A DNA stretch of 44,574 bases from a phage: the sequence record PX063913.1. One strand, given 5' to 3'. The position numbers and the translations under genes are program-made. Each line of letters begins with the position of its first letter. The stretch's first letter is position 1. The notes beneath the pieces are model-generated. The model had not been told where the DNA came from. It saw only the letters and a program-made list of their open reading frames with translations, and searched no databases. Shown here one piece after another: positions 1 to 44,574 of the stretch.

Positions 1-1707
1 ATGGCAGCGGGTACACTATCCGTAACGAATAACAGCAAGGCGGTTGTCGGGGTAGGCACGACGTTTACCGCGTTTAAAGCAGGCGACTTCTTATCGCTGG
101 TAGTGGGGCAAGTTCCTTACACTGTTGCGATCTCGTCCGTAGAAAGCGACACCGCGCTTACGCTTGTGCTGCCGTTCGACGGACCAACGGCAACTGGCCT
201 CGCGTGGGATGGCGTTAAGCGCGATACCATGTCGCTGGCAACGATGGGCGTAACCGTCCAGGCCCAGAAAGCGTTGCGCTTGATGCTCGCGGACGAAAAT
301 AACTGGCGCGCAATCTTCGGAGACGAGGAAGAAATCGCGGTAACGCTGCCGAACGGGCAAGTTATGCAGGGTATGTCATGGGGCTATCTGTCGCAATTGC
401 TGAAGGAAGTTGACCCTGTTGAGATGCGCAACCTGCAACAACAAGCCGCCGCATCTGAAGCCGCCGCGCTGGTATCGCGTAATGAAGCAGAAGGCTTCAA
501 GAACGACGCCAATACCATCAAGACGCAGACCGACCAAATCAAGGCCGATACGCAGGCGATCCACGACGCCACCAACACCATCAAGACGCAGACGGATCAG
601 ATTAAGGCGGATACGCAGGCCATCAAGGACCAGACGAACCAGATTAAGACTGAAACCGGCGTTATTCGCGACGAAGCTAATACGGCGAAGACTGACGCGC
701 AGGCCGCCAGCGCTGCCGCGCAGGGATTTCGCGATCAGGCCGAAGAATGGGCACAAAGCGTAAACGCCGATAATCTGCTAACCAAATCCAGCAACCTGGC
801 GGGGCTAACTGATAAATCGGAGGCGCGCTCTAATCTTGATTTGGGGTCTGTTGCCACTGAAAACACCGTCCCTATCGAAAAAGGCGGCACTGCGGCAACA
901 ACGGCAGCGGAGGCGCGCTCTAATTTCGGGTTGGGGTCTGTTGCCACGGAAAACACCGTTCCGATCGAGAAAGGGGGAACCGCCGCGACGACGGTAGCCG
1001 CTGCGCGCACTAATTTCGGGTTGGGCGATAACAATAACGTAAAACTTGGCACGTTGCGCCTAAACGGTGGTGAATCGCTAGTCTTCAATGATGTCGAGCG
1101 TAACGGTTTGATTATATCCAACGCGTCTTTCGGGATTGATAGCTGGGTTGGGCAGACGATGCATAAGTGGTACACGGATTGGACGCGCGCGGGCCTAGTA
1201 AGGGCCGGGGATACCCACTTATCAGACTACCGCGTCCATGTGTGGAAGGACGGCTTTACTGAGTCGCTATTCCGATTCCTACCGGACGGCAGGCTTATTA
1301 GTGGTAACAGCGTCAACCCGTCGGTTAACGAGTTCCAGAAAGCGCCGCTATCAGACCGCGACCTTAAAAAAGAAATCAAATACACGGACGGCGAGGAAAG
1401 TTACAACCGAGTTCGACAATGGCTTCCGGCGATGTTCAAGTATAAGGAGTCGGACGTACAGCGATACGGCCTTATCGCGCAGGACCTGGCACGGATTGAC
1501 CCGGAATACGTGCATTTGCTGCCGGGTTACGCCATTTATGAGGACGTCAAGGGGGTGGACGAGGAAGGGAACGAGGTTGTAGTAGATCGGAAGGAGATCG
1601 GGTATACCGACGATGTGCTGTCTTTGGATAGTAACGTGCTGTTGATGGATCTGTGTGCCGCCTTCGTCCACCTGTTGCATAAAGTGGAGAAGCTGGAAGG
1701 TAAATAA
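1..1707 (+). CDS. Tail fibre protein with C-terminal intramolecular chaperone (peptidase S74-like) domain
   Basis: ATG at nt 1, 568 aa. Two in-frame tandem repeat blocks: nt 511-690 (20-aa units NTIKTQTDQIKADTQAI) and nt 820-1027 (28-aa units RSNxxLGSVATENTVPIEKGGTAATT). C-terminal SDRDLKKEIKYTDG...YGLIAQDL resembles the autoproteolytic chaperone motif of phage fibres and endosialidases. Terminator follows. Confidence 0.7.
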   Translation: MAAGTLSVTNNSKAVVGVGTTFTAFKAGDFLSLVVGQVPYTVAISSVESDTALTLVLPFDGPTATGLAWDGVKRDTMSLATMGVTVQAQKALRLMLADENNWRAIFGDEEEIAVTLPNGQVMQGMSWGYLSQLLKEVDPVEMRNLQQQAAASEAAALVSRNEAEGFKNDANTIKTQTDQIKADTQAIHDATNTIKTQTDQIKADTQAIKDQTNQIKTETGVIRDEANTAKTDAQAASAAAQGFRDQAEEWAQSVNADNLLTKSSNLAGLTDKSEARSNLDLGSVATENTVPIEKGGTAATTAAEARSNFGLGSVATENTVPIEKGGTAATTVAAARTNFGLGDNNNVKLGTLRLNGGESLVFNDVERNGLIISNASFGIDSWVGQTMHKWYTDWTRAGLVRAGDTHLSDYRVHVWKDGFTESLFRFLPDGRLISGNSVNPSVNEFQKAPLSDRDLKKEIKYTDGEESYNRVRQWLPAMFKYKESDVQRYGLIAQDLARIDPEYVHLLPGYAIYEDVKGVDEEGNEVVVDRKEIGYTDDVLSLDSNVLLMDLCAAFVHLLHKVEKLEGK

Positions 1708-34421: not shown

Positions 34422-37064
34422 ATGGCAGATCAGGCAGCGGGCATCACGCTCAAGGCGGACGTCGCGCAAATTAAAACGGCGAATACTGTGCTGGACACAT
34501 TTGCGCAGAAATCCGAGAACACAGAACAGAAAGTCAAAAAATTAAACGACACCCTCGGCAAGTCGAAAAAGGTCACGGGTGACGCCGCTGGCGGAATGGA
34601 AAAGTTAGCGACTGAATCTCAGCGTGCCGCCGACGGCATGACGAAACAGGAGCGACTCGCCAGCCGATTAGGCATGTCGACCAAAAACCTGGGATTCGCA
34701 TCGCGGAACGCCGCATTCCAGTTACAGGATATCGCGGTTACGCTTGAGATGGGTATGCCGGTGCACCGCGTCATGCTTCAGCAGCTACCACAGCTAACCG
34801 GCGCATTTGGCGGACTAGGTAACACGCTGCGTTATGTTGCCGGCTTCCTCGGCCCCGTAGGGATCGGCCTTGCCGCCGTAACGGCGACGTTAGGCGTGGG
34901 TGTTGCAATTACGTCCCGAGCAGAGAACCAGGTAGCGGCGCTTAATAAGACGCTGGCACTTTCCGGTAACATTTCCGGCCTGACGGCAAACCAGATCCTG
35001 GTGCTATCCGAGAATGCCGAGCGCATGGGTGGGTCGTTCCGCAAGACGCGTGACACAATCCAGGCGCTGGCGGCGGCGGGTGTGAAAGCGGGTGGTGACT
35101 TCGGCGCACTGGCGAAGGTAGTGAATGACTTCGCGAAGGTGTCCAGCCAGCCGATCGAGGATGTGGTAGCGGCGGTGGCGAAGCTGTCAACCGACCCCGT
35201 TGGCGGACTGCGTGCGCTGGCGGATAAGTATCACGTCGTAAACGAAGCGCAGATCCAGCAGGTACAGTCGCTCGTTGATGCGGGTCGTGAGACAGACGCA
35301 GTTGCGTTGGCTAACAAAACAGCCGCTGCGTCGTTCACCAGCATGACCAATGAGATCAAGGCGAACATGGGTACGCTTGAGCGATCTATGAACGTCGTCA
35401 CATCGGCAGCCAAATCGATGTGGGACGCTATCCTGGATGTGGGCCGCGCGCAGTCCTCCAATGAGTCCGAGATGAAAGCGCGCGAATCACTCCAGCGCAT
35501 GACAACGGCTTACTATGCCGAGATGAAAGCGGTAAACGCTGCCGGTGGAGTGATGACCGAAGCGCAGAAAGCGCGTATTAACATGCTTTATAGCGAACTG
35601 GTCGCCCAGGAGAAAGTAGTGGCGTCGCTCACCCTGCGTAACCGTGCGGAGCGTGACAACGCCCGTGCCGCGGACGAATCCGCAAAGGCGAACGAGGAGG
35701 CCAACCGCACCGCCCGCGACCGCGCTGCGTTCGAGAAGGAGTACGCGACCAACGCGAAGAAGCGCGCCGACGAGATCGCCCGCCTCAATTTGCTGAATAA
35801 ACGCGGCGTAATTGATGAGAAAGAACTAGCCGAGGCGGTGAAGCAGGTAAACGAGCGCTACAAAGACCCGGCCCCGAAAAAGGCCGCGGCTGTTCGCGTG
35901 GATGCCGGTATGAAAATGTTGGAGGTTGCACGGAGCGAACTGGCCCAGCTTCGAGAATCCGGCAAGCAGATCGAAGCCAACGCGTCTACGCAGACCCGCA
36001 CGCAACGCGCTCAAGCGGCCCTAAACAAGCTGATCGCCGACAATGAGCAGTTAATCGCCGCGAGCAAAGAAAGGGCGCTAACGGCAGCAGAGAAGCAGCA
36101 GATGGTCGAATTCGGACGCGTGAAGGAAGTGCGCGAGCAGATCGTCGAAGAAGCCAAACTACTGGACGCGAAAGAGAAGCAGGTTAAGGCGCACGCGCAG
36201 ATCGACGCCTTCGTTAAGAACCAGAATGCCGAGCTAAAAGCCACCGCGGCTGGCTATGCGCTTTCCACTCGAGAAGCGGCAAACCTGCGTGAAGAATTGC
36301 AGCTAATCGACCGCCTGAAGCGTGTAGGCGCTAACGATACCGATATTGACAAGGCGGTGTCTAAGCTGCGGGAAGTGCAGGAGGCGCAGACCGGCGCTAA
36401 CGCCTCGCTATGGGATGGATTCAGTCGCGGGCTTAAGGATAGCGTGGATGAAATGGGTAACGGATATACGCAGATGGCGTCGCTCACTAAATTCACGTTC
36501 AGCGCTATGCAAGACACGATGAACGAGTTTTTCGAGACGGGCAAGATTAACGCGAAGGATATGGTCAAATCCATCCTGAGCGAATTAATCAAGCTGGCTA
36601 CATCGCAGGCATTCAAGTCCATCGTTAGCGCATTCGGTGGTGACGGCGGCAAAAACGGATTGTTCGGCGCTATCTTCTCTGGCCTGACTAAGAATGCGGA
36701 CGGCGGAGCGTACGCAGGAGGCAATCTAGCAGCCTATTCGGGGAAAGTGGTAAGCCAGCCTACCTTTTTCAGTTATGGCGTCCAGGCGTTCGCTAAGGGC
36801 GCAGGGTTGATGGGTGAGGCTGGACCCGAGGCCATCATGCCACTGAAGCGCGGGCCGGACGGTAAACTGGGCGTTGCCGCGTCTGGCGCAGGCGGTGGTA
36901 TGGTCGTGACGACTAACGTTTACACTGGGACCGGTAAAACGGATACCAGTGTCAGCGGGCCGGACCCCCGTACCGCGCAGGCGTTCGGCAAGCAAATCAC
37001 CGAGGCGGTGAAGGCTGAGATCGTGAAAGCGACGAAACCGGGTGGTGTACTTTACAAACGATGA
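34422..37064 (+). CDS. Tail tape measure protein
   Basis: 880 aa, long helical/coiled-coil regions and glycine-rich C-terminal part, downstream of G/GT; AAGGGGGA RBS. Confidence 0.9.
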   Translation: MADQAAGITLKADVAQIKTANTVLDTFAQKSENTEQKVKKLNDTLGKSKKVTGDAAGGMEKLATESQRAADGMTKQERLASRLGMSTKNLGFASRNAAFQLQDIAVTLEMGMPVHRVMLQQLPQLTGAFGGLGNTLRYVAGFLGPVGIGLAAVTATLGVGVAITSRAENQVAALNKTLALSGNISGLTANQILVLSENAERMGGSFRKTRDTIQALAAAGVKAGGDFGALAKVVNDFAKVSSQPIEDVVAAVAKLSTDPVGGLRALADKYHVVNEAQIQQVQSLVDAGRETDAVALANKTAAASFTSMTNEIKANMGTLERSMNVVTSAAKSMWDAILDVGRAQSSNESEMKARESLQRMTTAYYAEMKAVNAAGGVMTEAQKARINMLYSELVAQEKVVASLTLRNRAERDNARAADESAKANEEANRTARDRAAFEKEYATNAKKRADEIARLNLLNKRGVIDEKELAEAVKQVNERYKDPAPKKAAAVRVDAGMKMLEVARSELAQLRESGKQIEANASTQTRTQRAQAALNKLIADNEQLIAASKERALTAAEKQQMVEFGRVKEVREQIVEEAKLLDAKEKQVKAHAQIDAFVKNQNAELKATAAGYALSTREAANLREELQLIDRLKRVGANDTDIDKAVSKLREVQEAQTGANASLWDGFSRGLKDSVDEMGNGYTQMASLTKFTFSAMQDTMNEFFETGKINAKDMVKSILSELIKLATSQAFKSIVSAFGGDGGKNGLFGAIFSGLTKNADGGAYAGGNLAAYSGKVVSQPTFFSYGVQAFAKGAGLMGEAGPEAIMPLKRGPDGKLGVAASGAGGGMVVTTNVYTGTGKTDTSVSGPDPRTAQAFGKQITEAVKAEIVKATKPGGVLYKR

Positions 37065-37071
37065 TAAAATG

Positions 37072-37099
37072 GCCCTCACATCCATCGTGGGGGCTTTTT
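37072..37099 (+). terminator. Rho-independent terminator/attenuator
   Basis: GCCCTCAC-atccatc-GTGGGGGC followed by T5 directly abutting the next ATG. Confidence 0.5.
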
Positions 37100-37699
37100 A
37101 TGTCACAAGGTACGATCACATTAACTAAGGGTAGTAAGACCGTTACAGGCGCGGGGACGGCGTTCCTTAGCGAGATCGGGAAGGTACTCGTATTCGCCCG
37201 CATCGACGGCAACGACTACACCGGCAAAATTGCGGCGTTCAACTCGAACACGGTCATTACACTGAAAGATAACTGGGCCGGTCCAACGAAATCCGGTGCG
37301 GTATATGAGCTAATCGAAGCACACGACCCCCGATCAAACGAATGGCCCTATTACTGGCACATGCAATTGCAGGGCGGCGGCGACGTGCAGTTAGCTTTCC
37401 GGTCGGAGGAATTGCAATTCGGTAACGGTTACGGTCAGAACATCGCGGACGGCCCGAACGCCGAAACGAAACAATTTCCCGTGCAATTCGTCGGACTGAC
37501 TACCGACAAGTGGTGTAACCCTAAGCTGGTTTACAACTTCCTTCGCGGGCACTTTGTAAAACCGTTCATCGTCACCGCGCCGGATGGCGAGACAGGTTTA
37601 TTCGTGGTCGAGCGTTCGAGCTTGTCATACACTGACAACGGGCACTACACGGCAACGGTATCCGCCACCCTTAAAACAGCTATTGGATTCGTAAGATGA
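37100..37699 (+). CDS. Minor tail protein (gpM-position)
   Basis: ATG 37100; N-terminus GTITLTKGSKTVTGAGTAF resembles the N-terminus of the tail fibre at nt 1; first gene after the tape measure. Confidence 0.5.
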   Translation: MSQGTITLTKGSKTVTGAGTAFLSEIGKVLVFARIDGNDYTGKIAAFNSNTVITLKDNWAGPTKSGAVYELIEAHDPRSNEWPYYWHMQLQGGGDVQLAFRSEELQFGNGYGQNIADGPNAETKQFPVQFVGLTTDKWCNPKLVYNFLRGHFVKPFIVTAPDGETGLFVVERSSLSYTDNGHYTATVSATLKTAIGFVR

Positions 37700-38484
37700 A
37701 TAAACTCTATCGTGAAGCGACGCGCTTTGACCCATCGGGCCGCGTTCGCCTGATTCACATTGACGCGCAGGACGTGGAACCCGGCGACGGCGCGATCGGC
37801 GCGGGGCACCACTATTTTCACTACTGCTTTATTCCGCACACTGCCGAGGATATTGCTGCCGCTGGGGGTGACGAGGATAAGCTAAAACCTAAATCAATCT
37901 TCTTCGGCGGGCAGGAGTTCGAATTTTGGCCCTTTGATTTGTCCGGCCTCAACTTCTCCACGACAACGGCAGCGGAACCGCAGCTGACCATTGTCGATAT
38001 CGGCGGCATAATCACCCGGCTGTCGCTGAATCACGACCAGCTACTGGGCGCGAAGGTTGAGATCATTGATACGTTCGCGAAGTTCCTGGACAACGGGACA
38101 GATCCAGACCCGACGCAGAAACGAGTTCAGGAGTATTACATCGACTCGCAGGTCGGGCGCAATCCTGGCAAGCAAATCACCTTCGCACTATCCTCACCCG
38201 CGGATATGGAGGGGCAAGTAGTCCCCCGTCGCCAAATCATGAATATGTGCGAATGGGCGCTCAACGGGAAGTACGCCAGCGGTGACGGGTGCACATGGAA
38301 CCTTGCGAAGCCCGGGATCAAGTATTACGACGAGCGAGGTAATGAAGTCATTGCAATGAATATGGACCGATGCGGCGGCTGTTTGTCCGACTGCTATCTT
38401 CGTTTTGGGCAAGGGCTTGCGGATCCTAAAGCTGCGGTGCTGGACTTCGGTGGTTTTCCTGGGTCCAAATTAATCAAGGGGTAG
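37696..38484 (+). CDS. Minor tail protein, lambda gpL-like
   Basis: 262 aa; C-terminal cysteine cluster CEWALNGKYASGDGCTWN...CGGCLSDC, as in Fe-S-binding lambda gpL. Confidence 0.65.
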   Translation: MNKLYREATRFDPSGRVRLIHIDAQDVEPGDGAIGAGHHYFHYCFIPHTAEDIAAAGGDEDKLKPKSIFFGGQEFEFWPFDLSGLNFSTTTAAEPQLTIVDIGGIITRLSLNHDQLLGAKVEIIDTFAKFLDNGTDPDPTQKRVQEYYIDSQVGRNPGKQITFALSSPADMEGQVVPRRQIMNMCEWALNGKYASGDGCTWNLAKPGIKYYDERGNEVIAMNMDRCGGCLSDCYLRFGQGLADPKAAVLDFGGFPGSKLIKG

Positions 38485-38486
38485 CC

Positions 38487-39227
38487 ATGTTAACGAAAAA
38501 GGTTAAAAGCGATATCGCCGCGCACGTTGCGGCATGTCTGCCTGAAGAAGCCTGTGGCCTGGTCGTCATGGTGGGCCGCAAACAAGTATTTGTCCCGTGC
38601 ATGAACGTATTCGAAGACCCGACCGGCGTGCGTTCACGTAAAGACGCATTCACGATTAGTGATATGGCCTGGATGGATGCCGAGGATATGGGCGACGTCG
38701 TGCGCGTAGTCCACTCGCATCCGGGCCAGCGAGAGCTTACCCCATCACTGGGCGACGTTAACGGATGCAACGGCAGCGGCGTAGTCTGGACCATCACTAA
38801 CGAATATGGCGACTTTATCGAGATCGACCCGGAAGACCCTCCGCTGGTGGGGCGTCGATTTGTTCTCGGAATTACGGATTGTTACGGCCTCGTCATGGAC
38901 TGGCACAAAAAGCAGGGTGTAAACCTGCCAGACTTCCGCGTGCCGTATAACTGGTGGGAGACAGGCGAAAATCTGTATATGGATAATTGGTACGGTGCTG
39001 GCTTCAGGGAATGCGAGGAGAATACGCCGGGGGCAATGGTCATCATGCAGATTAGCGCGCCTGTGCCTAACCACGCTGGGATATTCCTTCCGGGCAACCA
39101 ACTACTACACCATATCTACGGCAGCCTGTCGAGCGTGATTCCCTTCCGGGCAGGATTTTTCCGCGACAATGTGGTTAAATGGGTACGTCATAAAGACCTA
39201 CCGGGGAATATCACAGAATGGCAATGA
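38487..39227 (+). CDS. Tail assembly protein, lambda gpK-like (MPN/JAMM plus NlpC/P60)
   Basis: HSHPGQRELTPSLGD fits the JAMM metalloprotease motif; C-terminal Cys/His region (GITDCYG...HHIYG) resembles NlpC/P60. Confidence 0.75.
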   Translation: MLTKKVKSDIAAHVAACLPEEACGLVVMVGRKQVFVPCMNVFEDPTGVRSRKDAFTISDMAWMDAEDMGDVVRVVHSHPGQRELTPSLGDVNGCNGSGVVWTITNEYGDFIEIDPEDPPLVGRRFVLGITDCYGLVMDWHKKQGVNLPDFRVPYNWWETGENLYMDNWYGAGFRECEENTPGAMVIMQISAPVPNHAGIFLPGNQLLHHIYGSLSSVIPFRAGFFRDNVVKWVRHKDLPGNITEWQ

Positions 39228-39835
39228 CCACGTTTAAATTGTACGGCGTCTTAGGGCGTCGTTTTGGTAAAGTGCATAAGCTGGACTGCTTCACACCGGG
39301 AGAAGGCATCACCGGCCTGTGTGTGAAGTTACCCGGCTTACAGGACTTTCTAATGTCTGCCCACCTGGACAATATGATGTTCAAGGTGCGCAAAGGCAAC
39401 CACACGATGTCCGGCTATGATGAACTGGGCGAGTTCCACGGCAACCGCGTCGTTACCATCGCGCCGGTTATGACTGGCGCAAAAAGCGGATTGGGCCAAT
39501 TGCTGGCGGGTGTCGCGATCGTAGTGGCGTCGTTCTATACGGGCGGACTTGCTACTGCCGCTTTCGGGGCTTCGGCGGCAACCGCTGCCGCTATCGGTAC
39601 AGCGACGTTTTCGTTTGGCATGTCGCTTGCGCTTGGCGGTGCTATGCAATTGCTCTCGCCACAGCCGAAAGGATTGCAGACACGGCAGGACGTGGATAAC
39701 AAAGCGTCGTATGCGTTCGGCGGACCGGTAAACACGACCGCACAAGGTACGGCACTTGGTGTATTATGGGGCGAGCGTGAGATCGGCGGCGCTATTATTT
39801 CAGCCGGAATCGTAACCGAGGACTTGAACGAATGA
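39218..39835 (+). CDS. Tail assembly protein, lambda gpI-like
   Basis: N-terminus MAMTTFKLYGVLGRRFGK and a glycine/alanine-rich hydrophobic C-terminal region; sits between K-like and J-like genes. Confidence 0.7.
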   Translation: MAMTTFKLYGVLGRRFGKVHKLDCFTPGEGITGLCVKLPGLQDFLMSAHLDNMMFKVRKGNHTMSGYDELGEFHGNRVVTIAPVMTGAKSGLGQLLAGVAIVVASFYTGGLATAAFGASAATAAAIGTATFSFGMSLALGGAMQLLSPQPKGLQTRQDVDNKASYAFGGPVNTTAQGTALGVLWGEREIGGAIISAGIVTEDLNE

Positions 39836-42800
39836 CGATTGTCTATGACGTCACAGGCCATAAAGGCGGCGGTGGAAAACAGCACACCCCACAGGAGACA
39901 CCCGATAGCCTGCATTCTCTGGCTAAAATCCGCATCTTGCTTGCGCTGGGAGAAGGTGAGTTCGAAGGTATTCCAGACCCTAACGAATTACGGCGGCGCG
40001 TATATCTGGACGGAACACCGATCCAGAATGCAGACCTGTCTGAAAACTTCCCCGGCGCGCGTGTGGAGTTCCGCCCCGGAACACAGCACCAGGATGTGAT
40101 CCACGGATTTTCAGCGGTGGAAAGTGAGCAATCTGTCGGCGTAAAGCTGGAAAACGGCACGCCGTGGGTGCGCCAGATTAACGACACCAGTTTGGACGCC
40201 GTGCGCATTCGCATCGGCATTCCTGCCCTGTACACAAACGAAGATAATGGCGACCTGGTGGGCGGGCGCATCGACTATAAGATCGTTGTGTATACGGATA
40301 ACGCGGACCCGCGTGAGTTCAGATTCGCCGCCGTTGGTAAAACAATGTCGCTATATGAGCGCGACCACCGCATCGAATTACCGCCGAACGTTAACACCGG
40401 CTGGCGCGTGGAGATGCACCGCATAACGGCAGACTCCACATCGGCGAAAGTGGTTAATGATATCCAGGTGCAATCCATCACTGAGATTATTGACGCCCGC
40501 CTGCGTTATCCGCTAACCGCGCTGTTGTTCGTGGAGTTCGACGCTAAAGCGTTCCAGAACATCCCGCGCGTGTCCATTAAGTGCAAAGGTCGCAAAGTTC
40601 TAATACCGAACAACTACGACCCGATTAATCATACTTATTCCGGGGACTGGGACGGCACGTTTAAACGCGCATGGACGGATAACCCTGCGTGGCACTGGTA
40701 CGATATTTGTATTACTGAGCGCTTCGGACTCGGTCGGCGTATCAAACCGCAAATGTTAAACCGGTACGCGCTCTACCAGATTGCGCAGCGCTGCGATCAG
40801 TTGGTCAGCGACGGCAACGGTGGTCGAGAAATCCGCTTTAAGAATGATATGTACATTCAGTCACAGACGGATGCCTGGACCGTGCTTAAGGATTTGGCTG
40901 CCATCTTCGCCGGAATGACCTGGTGGGGCAACCAGATGTTGAATATCGTCAGTGACCAACCGGTCGCAGCAGTGTCGCATACTATCACCAACGCATCTGT
41001 TATTGATGGGCGATTCGACTACGCATCTGGCAGCCAGAAAACTCGCTATTCCACATTCGCGGTAGCATACGGCAATCCGAAAAACCACTATGATGACGCT
41101 ATCGCAACGGGCCAGCGCGTCGAACTGGTGCGCCGCCATAAGATTAACCGTCTTGATATTACGGCGATCGGCTGTACGCGCGAGTCAGAAGCGCAACGCC
41201 GCGGGCACTGGGCGCTAATATCCAACCAGCTTGACCAGCAAGTTAGTTTTAAGGTTGGCATGGAGGGGTTATTCTTTATCCCAGGTAGCGTAGTCGCGAT
41301 CGCGGATACAAACATTTCTGGCGGATTCGAGACTCGCGGAGGTCGCCTGTTGTCGGACCCCGGAACGCGTACCGTGCTGAACACGGACAGCGAAATCACA
41401 TTCCGCCCTGGTGATAAGTTCCTGGTGCGCACCGATAGCGGTAATGTGGAGGCCCGCGAGATCGCCAGCGTCAACGGCAACAAGGTCACGCTAAAAACCG
41501 CACTGGATGCCGACCCGATCCCAGATCAGCCGTTTTGTGTTGATGGAGATGATATCCAGTTGCAGAAATTCCGCATCACCGATCTGGAATATGACGACTC
41601 TACCAGCACTTTCTCGGTGCGCGGGATTGAATACAACGATAGCAAGTATGATGCCGTTGATAATGGCGCTCGCCTTGACCCAGGCATCTTTACGCAAGTG
41701 CCGGACGGTGTAATGAAGGGGCCAGAATCCGTGACCATCACCCCGTCGCAGATTTCATCGCAAGGCCAGCTAATCACCAACGTGGATATTGTTTTCCCGC
41801 CGGTGAAAGATGCCGTGGTGTATGAAATACAGTGGAGGCGTACTAGCCTGCAGAATATGGAGATCCAGTGGGGTAACGACTGGGTGAATATCCCGCGCAC
41901 GGCGTCGAATGGGGCGCACATCCCTAACGTGTTCTCCGGTAACTATCAGGCACGCGTCCGCGCAATTGGTATGGGCGAAATCTCGTCCCCGTGGGTGTCT
42001 TCCGCGATCACGCCGGTGGAAGGTCGCCTCGGTGGGCTTAACGCCCCAATCATCACCAACGCGATTTCGGGTCTGCACCAGATTCTATGGAAGTGGAACC
42101 ACAACAACGCTGCGACTGATATCTCATACACCGAGCTTGAAGTGCGCAAGACGGGTGAAACGGAATGGAAATTCTTAACAAACGTCCCCTATCCTGGCGC
42201 GGAGTACGCGCAAACGTCGCTGGAGTTCGGCATATACCAGCAGTTGCGCGCCCGTGTAGCGGATAAAATCGGCAACCTGTCGGACTGGTCCGCCCCGTTC
42301 GAAGGCCAGGTGAGTGACAAAGTTGACGAGTACATGAAGGGGCTTGATGACGAGTTCTTGACTTCTGAGGATGGTAAACACTTCCAGGAAGCTATTAACA
42401 CGATCCCGCAAGGCATTTATGAGTCAATGCTCACCGACGCCCAGCAGCTATTCAACGCCCGCGCCGAGTACAAAGGGATTTACGCAGAAATCAAGGTCGC
42501 ATATAACGTGGCGGCAGACGCCCACAAGGCCGTCGCGCAACTGGAAACGTTGATCGGCACTCGCCTTGACGATGCGGAAGCGGCAATCCACACGTTGCAG
42601 ACAGCGCAAAGCACGCACGAGCAAGCATTCGCCCAGTATCAGCAAACTGTTGCCGCTAAGTTTGGGGAACAGGACGCCGCCATACAGCAGGTACAAACGG
42701 CAACGGCGGACGTGGCTGGCGCACTGGCGGAGTACAAGACCCAGGTGGCGGCACAGTTCGGTCAGCAGTCTGCAGCTATCGAGCAGAAGATGACGTCTTC

Positions 42801-43278
42801 GTTTAACCATGCTGGTGGCAGCGCAACATATAGCCTTAAGGCGGGCGTGACGTATAACGGGGCTTACTACGACGCCGGTATGCAGCTTTCCGTCGTTGCG
42901 GAAGGCGGCGCGGTTAAATCACGCATCGCGTTCAAGGCGGACCAGTTCTACATCATGCACCCGTCGAATGGGTCGCTTTCGTCCGCGTTTATTGTTGACG
43001 GCGGACAGGTGTACATTGACACCGCACGCATCAAGAATGCGTCCATCAACTTCGCACAGATCACGGACACGCTGCAATCAAATAACTTCGTTACAGGGTC
43101 GCGCGGCTGGCGTATCTGGAAGGATGGCGGTGCGGAGTTTAACCAGGTAACGGTACGCGGCAACCTGTACGCCACATCCGGTAACTTCGGATTCTCAGGT
43201 GGGACCGTGACTATCGACGCAACTGGCGTCAACGTGCCATTACCTGGCGGGGGCAGGGTGAAAGTCGGGACGTGGTGA
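39832..43278 (+). CDS. Central tail fibre / host specificity protein, lambda gpJ-like
   Basis: 1148 aa, last gene of the tail operon, ATGA-coupled to the I-like gene. Confidence 0.85.
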   Translation: MTIVYDVTGHKGGGGKQHTPQETPDSLHSLAKIRILLALGEGEFEGIPDPNELRRRVYLDGTPIQNADLSENFPGARVEFRPGTQHQDVIHGFSAVESEQSVGVKLENGTPWVRQINDTSLDAVRIRIGIPALYTNEDNGDLVGGRIDYKIVVYTDNADPREFRFAAVGKTMSLYERDHRIELPPNVNTGWRVEMHRITADSTSAKVVNDIQVQSITEIIDARLRYPLTALLFVEFDAKAFQNIPRVSIKCKGRKVLIPNNYDPINHTYSGDWDGTFKRAWTDNPAWHWYDICITERFGLGRRIKPQMLNRYALYQIAQRCDQLVSDGNGGREIRFKNDMYIQSQTDAWTVLKDLAAIFAGMTWWGNQMLNIVSDQPVAAVSHTITNASVIDGRFDYASGSQKTRYSTFAVAYGNPKNHYDDAIATGQRVELVRRHKINRLDITAIGCTRESEAQRRGHWALISNQLDQQVSFKVGMEGLFFIPGSVVAIADTNISGGFETRGGRLLSDPGTRTVLNTDSEITFRPGDKFLVRTDSGNVEAREIASVNGNKVTLKTALDADPIPDQPFCVDGDDIQLQKFRITDLEYDDSTSTFSVRGIEYNDSKYDAVDNGARLDPGIFTQVPDGVMKGPESVTITPSQISSQGQLITNVDIVFPPVKDAVVYEIQWRRTSLQNMEIQWGNDWVNIPRTASNGAHIPNVFSGNYQARVRAIGMGEISSPWVSSAITPVEGRLGGLNAPIITNAISGLHQILWKWNHNNAATDISYTELEVRKTGETEWKFLTNVPYPGAEYAQTSLEFGIYQQLRARVADKIGNLSDWSAPFEGQVSDKVDEYMKGLDDEFLTSEDGKHFQEAINTIPQGIYESMLTDAQQLFNARAEYKGIYAEIKVAYNVAADAHKAVAQLETLIGTRLDDAEAAIHTLQTAQSTHEQAFAQYQQTVAAKFGEQDAAIQQVQTATADVAGALAEYKTQVAAQFGQQSAAIEQKMTSSFNHAGGSATYSLKAGVTYNGAYYDAGMQLSVVAEGGAVKSRIAFKADQFYIMHPSNGSLSSAFIVDGGQVYIDTARIKNASINFAQITDTLQSNNFVTGSRGWRIWKDGGAEFNQVTVRGNLYATSGNFGFSGGTVTIDATGVNVPLPGGGRVKVGTW

Positions 43279-43285
43279 ATGCGAA

Positions 43286-43306
43286 GGGGCCAGATGGCCC
43301 CTTTCT
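43286..43306. terminator. Bidirectional rho-independent terminator
   Basis: GGGGCC-agat-GGCCCC followed by TTTCT, between the convergent J gene and the minus-strand gene. Confidence 0.6.
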
Positions 43307-44270
43307 AATACATGTTAGGGATGACTAGTAAAGGTGTGGGTACGGTCACATTACGATTAGGCATCTGGAATTGCTGCCGTGAGTAGTTACCGATCACGCG
43401 ATTTCGTGCCGCGCTAACCACGTTGCCAGCCATGCGTATCCCGTTCATTCGCACGTGGTTGTATCCGCTGTTGTTCTCAATGAGCGCGCCGGTATATGAG
43501 AGCTGTACGAGGCTGTTGCCAATATTCTGACCACCAGTGCTGATATTAATTACGGAATTGAGGACAAACGGCTTATTCACCGTGGAGAACGTGACCTGGC
43601 CCTGGTTGTTAGTCATGGTAATGCCGGTCCCCGGTGCTGGCGGCGTATTGTTGAAGATCACCAGGTCCATATCCACCGAAGCCGCCACATCGTCAATACC
43701 ACCATAGGACGCGTTGCGGACGATAATACTACCGCCGTCGAATCCTACCGACACGTTGCCGTCATCCCAGCGCGCGAACGGGATGCCACCCACCGGCAGC
43801 GGCATACTGCCGTTTACACGCACGCGCTGCGCGTATCGGCAGGTCATTAGCCGGGATACGTTCGATATCGCGGTGAAGTCAGTCGAGTTCGCCACCAGTA
43901 AGCCAGCATTGCGCGACCCAACCGGCAGCACTTCCATAATTATCCCAGCCCATTGCGGAAGACCACTGTATGCGTTATACGCGTCCGCACCTCGTAGAAT
44001 AATGCCGTTATCCCCGTTACGTTGTACAGACGTAACGTAGAATGGGTCCGGGAGCACCAGCGTTTGGTCGAAGACCTCAATCACTTCTACCGGACGCGTG
44101 AGCGCAACGACAAGATCCGACCCTGGGGTTAGCGGAGTATTAATGGTCAGCGTCTTATCGGACTGGCAGCGCTGATCAAACGTAGTGCAGTATGACGGAG
44201 CGCGAAGTCCGGCGGTTATCTCCATCACCGGCCTTCCGTCGTTGTAGTCTATAAGTATTCCAGCGCCCAT
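43305..44270 (-). CDS. Candidate receptor-binding protein
   Basis: 321 aa from ATG 44270 with GGGAG at 8 nt spacing; Gly/Asn/Ser/Thr-rich; sits 2 nt downstream of the lipoprotein gene on the opposite strand to gpJ, as in T5-type RBP-Llp loci. Confidence 0.45.
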   Translation of the reverse strand: MGAGILIDYNDGRPVMEITAGLRAPSYCTTFDQRCQSDKTLTINTPLTPGSDLVVALTRPVEVIEVFDQTLVLPDPFYVTSVQRNGDNGIILRGADAYNAYSGLPQWAGIIMEVLPVGSRNAGLLVANSTDFTAISNVSRLMTCRYAQRVRVNGSMPLPVGGIPFARWDDGNVSVGFDGGSIIVRNASYGGIDDVAASVDMDLVIFNNTPPAPGTGITMTNNQGQVTFSTVNKPFVLNSVINISTGGQNIGNSLVQLSYTGALIENNSGYNHVRMNGIRMAGNVVSAARNRVIGNYSRQQFQMPNRNVTVPTPLLVIPNMY

Positions 44271-44272
44271 AA

Positions 44273-44494
44273 TTACCACTCCCGAGATTTAACTGATACC
44301 GTACCAGAGAAGTTGCCGTCACTATCCGCGGACAGGCCGGTGAAGCGCATGTCAACATCCCCGGCAGGGGCTTTTTGCCCGTCAACGTAGCGCAACATGC
44401 AGCTACCGTAAGCGACCGTAATGCAATCGCCGTTGTTACGTTCTACCGCACAGCCGGACAGAAGAACCGCACAAATCACAATTAATGTTTTCAT
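44273..44494 (-). CDS. Small lipoprotein, candidate superinfection-exclusion protein (Llp/Cor-like)
   Basis: ATG 44494 with AGGGGA RBS; signal peptide MKTLIVICAVLLSGC with lipobox LSGC; mature part about 54 aa with two further cysteines. Confidence 0.55.
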   Translation of the reverse strand: MKTLIVICAVLLSGCAVERNNGDCITVAYGSCMLRYVDGQKAPAGDVDMRFTGLSADSDGNFSGTVSVKSREW

Positions 44495-44547
44495 GGTATC
44501 ATCCCCTATATTTGGTTGAGTTTTAGTATTGCACCGCTCGACCAGGA

Positions 44548-44558
44548 TTGCAACCAAT
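44548..44558. promoter_or_regulatory. ATTGGTTGCA motif in the promoter region upstream of the lipoprotein gene
   Basis: TTGCAACCAAT at the window end, upstream of the minus-strand lipoprotein gene; would also lie upstream of the fibre gene at nt 1 if the genome is contiguous. Confidence 0.4.
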
Positions 44559-44574
44559 TTAAGAGGATTCAGCT

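Follow-up and report, generated by a model that had tools for sequence, protein, structure and literature searches.

The open reading frame at the start of the analysed phage DNA is very probably the gene of a modular Dhillonvirus side fibre that ends in a Peptidase S74 chaperone, and this reading explains the evidence as a whole best. The window, the full stretch of 44,574 nucleotides (record PX063913.1), is an entire, circularly permuted Dhillonvirus genome whose nearest phage is JL1. The fibre gene is an ordinary side fibre gene of a small E. coli phage of this genus and represents a mosaic allele that is new but of a known type. The following features were assigned in and around it.

1–1707, plus strand: lateral tail fibre gene; the frame is complete, starts with ATG at base 1 and encodes a precursor of 568 residues (61.5 kDa).
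44561–44567, plus strand: Shine-Dalgarno sequence AAGAGGA, read from the sequence, 7 nt before the fibre ATG once the permuted genome is closed.
1–225, plus strand: N-terminal beta-rich domain, residues 1–75, a putative tail anchor paralogous to the N-domain of the distal tail protein Dit (BLASTP, PHROG, AF2).
226–414, plus strand: conserved linker or neck, residues 76–138, poorly modelled and 83–100% identical among relatives.
415–759, plus strand: alpha-helical coiled-coil shaft, residues 139–253, about 16 heptads (AF2 and heptad register).
505–693, plus strand: 63-nt (21-residue, three-heptad) repeat family with units at 505–567 and 568–630 and a degenerate third at 631–693.
823–1029, plus strand: 90-nt (30-residue) repeat family, ARSN(L/F)xLGSVATENTVPIEKGGTAATT, with units at 823–912 and 913–1002 and a partial one at 1003–1029.
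1030–1350, plus strand: distal beta-rich domain, residues 344–450, a putative tip for receptor binding, with the predicted cleavage site at its end (AF2).
1351–1704, plus strand: Peptidase S74 intramolecular chaperone, residues 451–568, 13.7 kDa (PF13884, conserved residues, profile and fold matches).
1351–1353, plus strand: predicted cut site before Ser451, whose partner Lys456 is encoded at 1366–1368.
1708–1735, both strands: two-way intrinsic terminator, a GC-rich hairpin flanked by T and A runs, from a terminator scan of both strands.

The encoded protein matches the tail-fibre family phrog_1980 over its full length (residues 1–566, profile E 1.2e-130). It is 89% identical to its homologue in JL1 and 85% to that in SSL-2009a, and in both the start methionine lies at the same residue. 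A total of 148 phage records match the fibre, almost all of Escherichia or Dhillonvirus and labelled tail fibre or tail tip; across all phage-collection records, no section of the gene is matched at more than about 92% nucleotide identity. The gene lies downstream of the gpJ/RBP module in the order gpJ, DUF6453 gene (minus strand), lipoprotein gene (minus strand), fibre gene and convergent early genes. This order recurs in JL1, and gene order around the fibre gene is likewise the same in SSL-2009a. It forms a plus-strand unit with its own ribosome-binding site and terminator, the latter separating it from the convergent gene on the minus strand at 1734–2309. A promoter scan upstream of the fibre gene returned one weak site that was not above shuffle expectation, and we claim no promoter here. 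Alternative-frame ORFs over the repeats (e.g. 410–763 on the plus and 376–756 on the minus strand) were dismissed as Arg/Pro-rich by-products of the repeats.

In Dhillonvirus, this locus has been described as the lateral tail fibre, conserved at its 5′ end only; micrographs and models support the placement of the homologue as a side fibre, and the lateral fibre crosses the O-antigen before the central fibre binds a porin (BASEL papers, 10.1101/2021.03.08.434280; PMC11990801). In phage EE09, the homologous fibre was detected together with Dit by MS in a cell-free lysate (PMC10673088). Several GenBank records instead carry the name ‘putative tail tip protein’, and the homologues of SSL-2009a, JL1 and UAE_MI-01 are annotated ‘tail tip protein’. 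A role of the protein as central tail tip or host-specificity protein is nevertheless hardly credible, as this name is inherited from an ES18 similarity note and the true tip protein is the 1148-residue gpJ homologue encoded at 39832–43278. The latter contains FNIII-A_GpJ, Phage-tail_3 and Phage_Tail_Tip domains and matches the ‘J-like tail tip protein gp24’ (PDB 23gd_D) end to end, whereas a Pfam search of the fibre found none of these three domains.

The domain layout draws in part on an AF2 model of the fibre. This model covers a single chain and is of modest quality (mean pLDDT 63.9, pTM 0.27), with pLDDT below 50 in the repeat region and in the neck (residues 76–139). The N-terminal beta-rich domain of about 75 residues would fasten the fibre to the tail tip. 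Past the conserved neck, a three-stranded coiled coil of heptads with a length of about 115 residues, including a duplicated 21-residue block, would form the first part of the shaft, which would then continue with two-and-a-bit copies of the 30-residue repeat. The coiled coil (residues 139–253) is modelled as a single helix with pLDDT up to 92, and its heptad register runs uninterrupted through residues 160–250, with I, F, L, W or A at the seventh position and T or A at the fourth. In a search of solved structures it weakly matches the shaft of T7 gp17, and the shaft is presumably trimeric. The distal domain, with beta-strands at 358–446 and a length of about 105 residues, probably binds a surface glycan, e.g. 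the O-antigen, as primary and reversible receptor. The fibre gene is the likely determinant of the O-antigen types that this phage can cross, and its practical value is modest. Its modular layout of anchor, heptad ruler, 30-residue ruler, tip and self-removing chaperone may offer a handy scaffold for host-range engineering. A Pfam search returned no family for the N-terminal domain, the 30-residue repeat or the distal domain, and an NCBIfam search returned only a spurious SMC coiled-coil match.

We also considered whether the protein, instead of being a passive fibre, might act enzymatically as a tailspike (depolymerase), which we judge to be very improbable. Spikes of the endosialidase type often carry S74 domains, and a mixed profile of fibre N-termini matches the N-termini of the Klebsiella phage depolymerases 7vyv and 7lzj. 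However, this match is driven by T1-like sequences in the profile, and the N-terminus of the present fibre is only marginally related: single-sequence phmmer gave no link between its N-domain and the T1-like/Depo32-type N-domains, and hhalign gave a probability of 26%, for which reasons we treat a tie between them as unproven. Furthermore, Pfam, PHROG and NCBIfam searches found no glycosidase, lyase or beta-helix domain in the fibre, and the stretch from the shaft repeats to the cleavage site has only roughly 105 residues, too few for known depolymerase folds.

The preliminary description of this DNA had regarded the C-terminal region as typical of intramolecular chaperone autoproteases, and a domain search bears this out. 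All the computational checks proposed with that description turned out in its favour. Pfam PF13884 (Peptidase_S74) matches residues 451–504 with E 9.1e-9 and a score of 35.9 bits, above the cut-off of 22. The match opens, at position 1 of the model, with the motif SDRDLKKEIKYTDG (residues 451–464, nt 1351–1392), and precomputed Pfam matches to the same family exist for nearly all fibre homologues. A profile built from the C-termini matches the solved chaperone domains 8hqz_d (E 4.9e-22, L-shaped fibre of DT57C), 6f45_A, 7dc3_A (MyRF ICA), 8jov and 3gud_A (GA-1). This profile was needed to reach the chaperone domains, as the full-length fibre sequence gave no S74 match among solved structures. 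The fold of the AF2 model, which ends in a terminal helix at 546–567, matches 7dc3 (E 8.6e-4) and 3gud in Foldseek.

In the endosialidase, T5 pb1 and MyRF domains, a Ser-Lys pair of the form S-x4-K provides the nucleophile and the general base. The corresponding pair in the present fibre is S451-D-R-D-L-K456 at the N-terminal edge of the domain. S451, D452, K456, G490 and D543 are invariant in an alignment of 11 diverse C-termini, and a scan of 121 sequences, made up of this fibre and 120 homologues, found the motif S-D-x-x-x-K in 95 of them. The chaperone would nucleate trimerisation of the fibre from the C-terminal end and would then cleave itself off before Ser451 by means of Ser451 and Lys456; both the trimer state and the cleavage are expected, the predicted products being a mature chain of 47.9 kDa and the 13.7 kDa domain. 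It is very improbable that the domain is instead kept in the mature fibre as an inactive, uncleaved relic. The literature examined reported no cleavage data for any Dhillonvirus fibre, which counts in favour of such a relic, but the invariance of Ser451 and Lys456, and also of G490 and D543, across divergent homologues, the location of the motif exactly at the start of the Pfam model and the nature of the nearest solved relatives all argue against it. Among these relatives, 8hqz and 6f45 are tail-fibre chaperone domains, whereas 7dc3 and 3gud are domains that process themselves.

Both repeat families of the shaft are real. They had been placed at nt 511–690 and 820–1027, ranges that proved correct, and both lie in frame since their periods are multiples of three. 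TRF reports 2.3 copies of a 63-nt period at 509–650 (78% matches) and 2.3 copies of a 90-nt period at 818–1025 (83% matches), and a second repeat search returned pairs at 503–628 and 818–997, each 83% identical. The best 60-nt self-match windows reach 53/60 at offset 90 and 50/60 at offset 63; in codon-shuffled controls the mean was 31.7 and the maximum 40, and none of 300 reached the observed self-match. The 63-nt family corresponds to three heptads of the coiled coil, with I at one core position and T or A at the other. Its two full units are 82.5% identical at the nucleotide level, the codon differences being 7 synonymous and 3 non-synonymous, and the third unit (631–693) shows 48% identity over the 42 nt compared. 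The 90-nt family encodes the 30-residue shaft unit “ARSNLGLGSVATENTVPIEKGGTAATT”, and its two full units, compared codon by codon, have 80% nucleotide identity; 11 of the codon differences are synonymous and 4 are non-synonymous. Since the copies are only 80–83% identical, with a longest exact run between copies of 17 nt in this genome and mostly synonymous differences, the array is old and selected rather than a hot tract.

Repeat copy number does vary among relatives. The count of 30-residue units ranges from 0 to 3, the present fibre having two full units, JL1 three and SSL-2009a one, and the coiled-coil lengths differ only by whole heptads, i.e. by exact multiples of 7 residues. That the number does change follows from JL1, which carries 99–100% identical duplicates in the form of an adjacent pair of 30-residue units with 99% identity and a perfect 21-nt repeat of 2.3 copies. 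The suggestion that repeat number in such fibres is prone to slippage holds as far as changing copy number is concerned, but slippage is no more than a candidate mechanism, given the divergence of the copies, the unit order and the mosaic structure of the gene. Unit 1 of the present fibre corresponds to units 2 and 3 of JL1 (92–93%) and unit 2 to JL1 unit 1 (91%). The coiled-coil allele is 99% identical to that of the uncultured relative P0002 and 83% to that of JL1, whereas for the distal domain the identity is 96% with JL1 and 72–74% with P0002 (72%), P0003 and P0012. The distal domain is the most exchangeable module, repeat-copy number aside; the N-terminal domain and neck are 79–100% identical across 12 relatives, and the S74 tail does not differ from that of JL1 or SSL-2009a.

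The differing unit order relative to JL1 and the module mosaic suggest recombination no less than slippage. A stricter version of this explanation holds that the copy-number differences stem from homologous recombination of diverged alleles and unequal crossing-over instead of replication slippage, and that they are neutral rather than a tuning of fibre length; we consider its chances to be even. The mosaicism and unit order described above, the low identity and short exact runs of the copies and the 73-residue coiled-coil spacing common to 60 of 74 relatives are consistent with it. Against it, the 99% unit pair and the perfect 21-nt repeat of JL1 look like recent local duplications, and the restriction of coiled-coil length changes to exact multiples of 7 residues suggests that structure-preserving changes were retained. 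Judged from geometry, repeat number would alter fibre length by about 1 nm per heptad. Relatives with 0, 1, 2 or 3 units and steps of 7 residues constitute a natural experiment on the role of fibre length in adsorption.

The N-terminus of the fibre had been noted to resemble that of a protein encoded at 37100, taken to be a minor tail protein. The latter is indeed a tail protein and more exactly the distal tail protein.

37100–37699, plus strand: distal tail protein (Dit, gpM-like, 199 residues), with PF05939 at residues 99–200 of the longer ORF.
37100–37354, plus strand: Dit add-on domain, the first ~85 residues, homologous to the fibre N-terminus.

Dit matches the ‘Distal tail protein gp20’ of PDB 23gd_B with E 1e-130. 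Residues 1–71 of the fibre share 34% identity with Dit (BLASTP, E 2e-6), and profile searches agree in both directions: the Dit N-domain finds phrog_1980, the family of tail fibres (E 7.5e-14), and the N-domain of the fibre finds the Dit family phrog_9922 (E 3.8e-7). In a search of solved structures, the fibre N-domain also matches 23gd_B (E 3.6e-4). On these sequence comparisons, the resemblance is true homology. In the AF2 model, residues 2–72 of the fibre form six beta-strands with pLDDT of about 70–80, for which Foldseek returns weak matches (E 0.01–0.1) to small beta-barrel domains of lambda gpJ, the Chi tail tip and an ATPase N-domain. The near-identical Dhillonvirus tail tip of PDB 23gd includes chains for Dit, the hub and J, and a sequence comparison found none for the fibre.

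In F-pyocin structures, a related N-terminal domain (residues 2–76) fastens the side fibres to the tail (PMC13455828; 10.64898/2026.02.24.707460). By analogy with these structures, the domain shared by fibre and Dit may serve as an attachment module. The Dit N-domain matches the F-pyocin side fibre 25ve_A with E 2.8e-5 and the fibre-family profile matches it weakly (E 0.066), so that the link of the fibre to F-pyocin is mainly transitive through Dit. Of the other tail-tip proteins, gpJ (E 3.5e-223) and gpL (E 1.9e-29) are homologous to those of F-pyocin. As in the present fibre, a beta domain of about 75 residues starts the trimeric side fibre of the F-type pyocin PyoF13/PA0646 (25ve, OB-like). 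The pyocin domain acts as a clamp on the central fibre's helical shaft, and the pyocin Dit has no such domain (PMC13455828), whereas Dit in the present phage carries a copy of it. The T1 Dit (9l9p_H, 117 residues) aligns to residues 84–176 of Dit only and lacks the add-on domain. If the marginal relation of the fibre N-domain to those of the T1-like fibres held, the Dit copy would not be a general requirement for attachment.

The shared domain provides a modest lead, open to testing, on the way in which side fibres attach to lambda-like tips that have no dedicated collar protein. One could imagine a docking collar made from the two paralogous beta domains, six copies from Dit and one from each fibre chain, with the fibres plugging into the Dit ring by co-oligomerisation of the domains and the heptads and 30-residue modules acting as a ruler set to the thickness of the host O-antigen or capsule. 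We put this forward as a speculative and rather unlikely arrangement; if true, it would be a third solution beside the Stf-only collar of Ur-lambda and the separate collar protein of T5.

When compared to known systems, the fibre is closest to the lateral fibres of JL1 and SSL-2009a (phrog_1980), with which it shares gene position and domain order. It differs from them in the number of 30-residue units, and its coiled-coil allele is P0002-like rather than JL1-like. The L-shaped fibre of T5/DT57C (pb1/LtfA, 8hqz_d) is likewise a siphophage side fibre with an S74-type C-terminal chaperone and a small receptor-binding tip just ahead of the cleavage site, and a facultative O-antigen-binding role is common to both fibre types (BASEL papers, 10.1101/2021.03.08.434280; PMC11990801). 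However, it comprises 1076 or more residues compared to 568 here, and the match reported is confined to the C-terminal S74-type domain. It is also anchored by separate collar proteins, p132 in T5 and LtfC in DT57C (PMC12617516), in contrast to the putative N-terminal beta-domain anchor of the present fibre. With the endosialidase, the GA-1 neck appendage and MyRF (PF13884; 3gud, 7dc3) the fibre has in common the S-x4-K pair at the domain start, the fold found by Foldseek and the C-terminal helix; its passenger is a coiled-coil-plus-repeat fibre instead of a beta-helical spike or a transcription factor.

The 30-residue repeat recurs in the long tail fibre gp12 of SU10 (Kuravirus), a podophage with another fibre context. 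In the structure of SU10 gp12, 90 N-terminal residues were built and the repeat region is unresolved, so this entry gives the repeat no three-dimensional form (PMC9509320). At the sequence level (7z47 chain D), residues 270–352 of the present fibre align to residues 466–549 of gp12 with E 1.5e-11, and both share the repeat ‘GGT.A...A..ARSNLGLGSV.T...VPI’.

The window is the complete, circularly permuted genome of a small E. coli siphophage belonging to Dhillonvirus; its tail region (36000–44574) is 95.7% identical to phage JL1, and its gene order is that of JL1 and SSL-2009a, two related Dhillonvirus phages. The fibre ATG coincides with the first base of the window, and since a Shine-Dalgarno sequence (AAGAGGA, 44561–44567) is found at the other window end, 7 nt 5′ of this ATG after circle closure, the ORF is complete. 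The gene and its neighbors are:

1–1707, plus strand: fibre ORF, 568 aa
1708–1735, both strands: GC-rich hairpin, an intrinsic terminator predicted from its terminator score
43305–44279, minus strand: DUF6453 gene, 323 aa (E 4e-120)
44273–44494, minus strand: phage lipoprotein gene, 73 aa, lipobox LLSGC

The hairpin separates the fibre gene from a convergent minus-strand ORF (1734–2309, 190 aa), for which a Pfam search returned no match.

A search of the phage collection matched the fibre gene in 148 records, nearly all Escherichia or Dhillonvirus. The BASEL studies identified this locus as the Dhillonvirus lateral tail fibre, conserved only at its 5′ end, which is ‘likely attached to the tail’, and highly variable in the remainder; the lateral fibre serves passage through the O-antigen, after which the central fibre binds a porin (10.1101/2021.03.08.434280; PMC11990801). 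Pfam, PHROG and NCBIfam searches of the fibre gave no indication of an enzymatic tailspike. The label ‘tail tip protein’ carried by several homologues in GenBank is a misnomer, the true tip being the gpJ homologue (39832–43278). To delineate the domains, we combined an AF2 monomer model with sequence evidence, reading the model domain by domain only because its mean pLDDT is just 63.9:

aa 1–75: beta domain of six strands
aa 76–138: neck, conserved but modelled poorly
aa 139–253: single unbroken helix with clean heptad register
aa 275–343: two full and one partial 30-aa units, ARSN(L/F)xLGSVATENTVPIEKGGTAATT
aa 344–450: small, beta-rich distal domain
aa 451–568: S74 domain and terminal helix

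One core position of the helix holds Ile, Phe or Leu and the other Thr or Ala, a pattern that, under general coiled-coil rules, would be expected for a trimeric coiled coil. A sequence search of solved structures placed the 30-aa unit in two other fibres, the SU10 podophage long tail fibre, gp12 (E 1.5e-11), and ‘short tail fiber gp92’ (9zd7). Since the repeat-bearing part of SU10 gp12 is not resolved in the structure (PMC9509320), no solved three-dimensional form of the unit was found in the SU10 entry, to which this check was confined.

The observation made on this ORF in the preliminary description is confirmed and its interpretation supported, with caveats on mechanism. The two in-frame repeat families described there are recovered by TRF as a 63-nt family (509–650) and a 90-nt family (818–1025), each of 2.3 copies and in frame because both periods are multiples of three. 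A separate repeat search gave 83% identity for the repeat pairs of both families, and the best 60-nt self-match windows (53/60 for the 90-nt and 50/60 for the 63-nt family) were reached in none of 300 codon-shuffled controls (mean 31.7, maximum 40). The 63-nt repeat is a duplicated three-heptad block of the coiled-coil shaft. Within the window, the copies are 80–83% identical with a longest exact run of 17 nt, and their codon differences are mostly synonymous (synonymous/non-synonymous 11/4 in the 90-nt and 7/3 in the 63-nt family); these copies are old and retained by selection on the protein, and there is no hot slippage tract.

An identical repeat number in all relatives, which would have argued against variation, is refuted. 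Close homologues of 598, 568, 538 and 508 aa contain 3, 2, 1 and 0 full 30-aa units, and other variants have a coiled coil differing in length by 7, 14 or 21 aa. Coiled-coil spacing, measured in the 74 sequences that carry both anchor motifs, takes the values 31, 52, 59, 66 and 73 aa (73 in 60 of them), which differ by exact multiples of 7 throughout. As each of two flanking-sequence lineages holds more than one copy number, the change happened more than once. In JL1, units 2 and 3 share 99% DNA identity, and a perfect 21-nt x2.3 tandem repeat (1970–2017 of the JL1 record, L002), absent from the window, duplicates one heptad (GFRNEAE); both are recent events, the heptad duplication being very recent and in frame.

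Slippage, to which repeat number was proposed to be prone, is a candidate mechanism of the variation: the JL1 duplications are recent, but the window copies are old, and recombination explains the variation at least as well as slippage, since the unit order differs from JL1 and the gene is a mosaic. Unit 1 of the window resembles JL1 units 2 and 3, whereas unit 2 resembles JL1 unit 1. The coiled coil shares 99% identity with that of P0002, an uncultured relative, and the distal domain 96% with JL1 but 72% with P0002. The whole fibre is 89% identical to JL1 and 92% to its top match, from an uncultured relative. The gene is a new allele composed of modules from different relatives, of a kind already known. 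From geometry, repeat number would tune fibre length by about 1 nm per heptad.

The C-terminal self-cleaving chaperone domain claimed for the fibre is matched by Pfam Peptidase_S74 (E 9.1e-9, 35.9 bits, cut-off 22), with cleavage itself a prediction. The SDRDLKKEIKYTDG motif (aa 451–464) forms the opening residues of this match. Four further lines agree with it. S-D-x-x-x-K occurs in 95 of 121 sequences scanned (120 homologues and the fibre); Ser451, Asp452, Lys456, Gly490 and Asp543 are invariant in 11 divergent C-termini; a profile of these C-termini matches solved chaperone domains, namely those of the DT57C L-shaped fibre (8hqz_d, E 4.9e-22), 6f45, MyRF (ICA domain, 7dc3) and the GA-1 neck appendage (3gud); and Foldseek likens the C-terminus of the fibre model to 7dc3 and 3gud. 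S74 chaperones are textbook components of siphophage side fibres, e.g. T5 pb1 and DT57C, and in solved systems the domain drives trimer folding and then cleaves itself. By analogy, the fibre domain would drive trimer folding and self-cleave before Ser451, with predicted products of 47.9 kDa (mature chain) and 13.7 kDa (computed masses).

The reported N-terminal resemblance to the protein at 37100 is genuine, with 71 aligned aa at 34% identity (E 2e-6). This protein (37100–37699, plus strand) is the distal tail protein Dit; it shares ~95% identity with PDB 23gd_B (‘Distal tail protein gp20’), and its C-terminal half carries the gpM-type minor-tail domain. Its longest ORF begins at ATG 37061, 13 codons before 37100; in the 23gd_B chain and in the annotation of SSL-2009a, the first residue is the Met at 37100. 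The first ~85 residues are an add-on missing in T1 Dit (117 aa). The add-on matches the tail-fibre family phrog_1980 (E 7.5e-14), the fibre N-terminus matches the Dit family phrog_9922 (E 3.8e-7), and both match the N-termini of ~10 further fibre families; on these sequence matches, the homology of the two domains is solid.

F-pyocin side fibres are fastened by an N-terminal domain (residues 2–76) that is OB-like and resembles the T5 Dit decoration domain (PMC13455828; 10.64898/2026.02.24.707460). The Dit add-on matches this domain at E 2.8e-5 and the fibre-family profile weakly (E 0.066), and the rest of the tail tip is strongly homologous to that of the F-pyocin. Because the related domain fastens side fibres and the tail tips are homologous, the ‘shared attachment module’ proposed for Dit and fibre is a reasonable reading, its homology standing and its docking role drawn by analogy. 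Residues ~860–990 of gpJ (~130 aa) are Ala/Gln-rich, look helical by composition and precede the Phage_Tail_Tip domain; they are a candidate counterpart of the F-pyocin shaft bearing side fibres. Candidate docking sites are the Dit add-on ring, the gpJ shaft, or both. PDB 23gd comes from a Dhillonvirus that is nearly identical and contains its Dit (gp20), hub (gp21) and J-like (gp24) chains, the J-like chain matching gpJ at 2557 bits and equalling it in length (1148 aa); a sequence search found no fibre chain in this entry. The paralogous beta domain on Dit and fibre, which could point to a putative Dit-assisted docking collar, is the least ordinary element and merits a structural look.

The minus-strand DUF6453 and lipoprotein genes sit between gpJ and the fibre gene, and JL1 carries the same pair; in SSL-2009a their place is taken by two genes on the plus strand and then a cor gene on the minus strand. 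The pair probably represents the module for terminal receptor binding and superinfection exclusion that the BASEL papers describe as exchangeable. In the phage collection, records labelled ‘Acinetobacter phage NJ01’ and as a phage of ‘Campylobacter’ share ~94–95% identity with 36000–44574, which suggests mislabelled hosts or contamination in these deposits.
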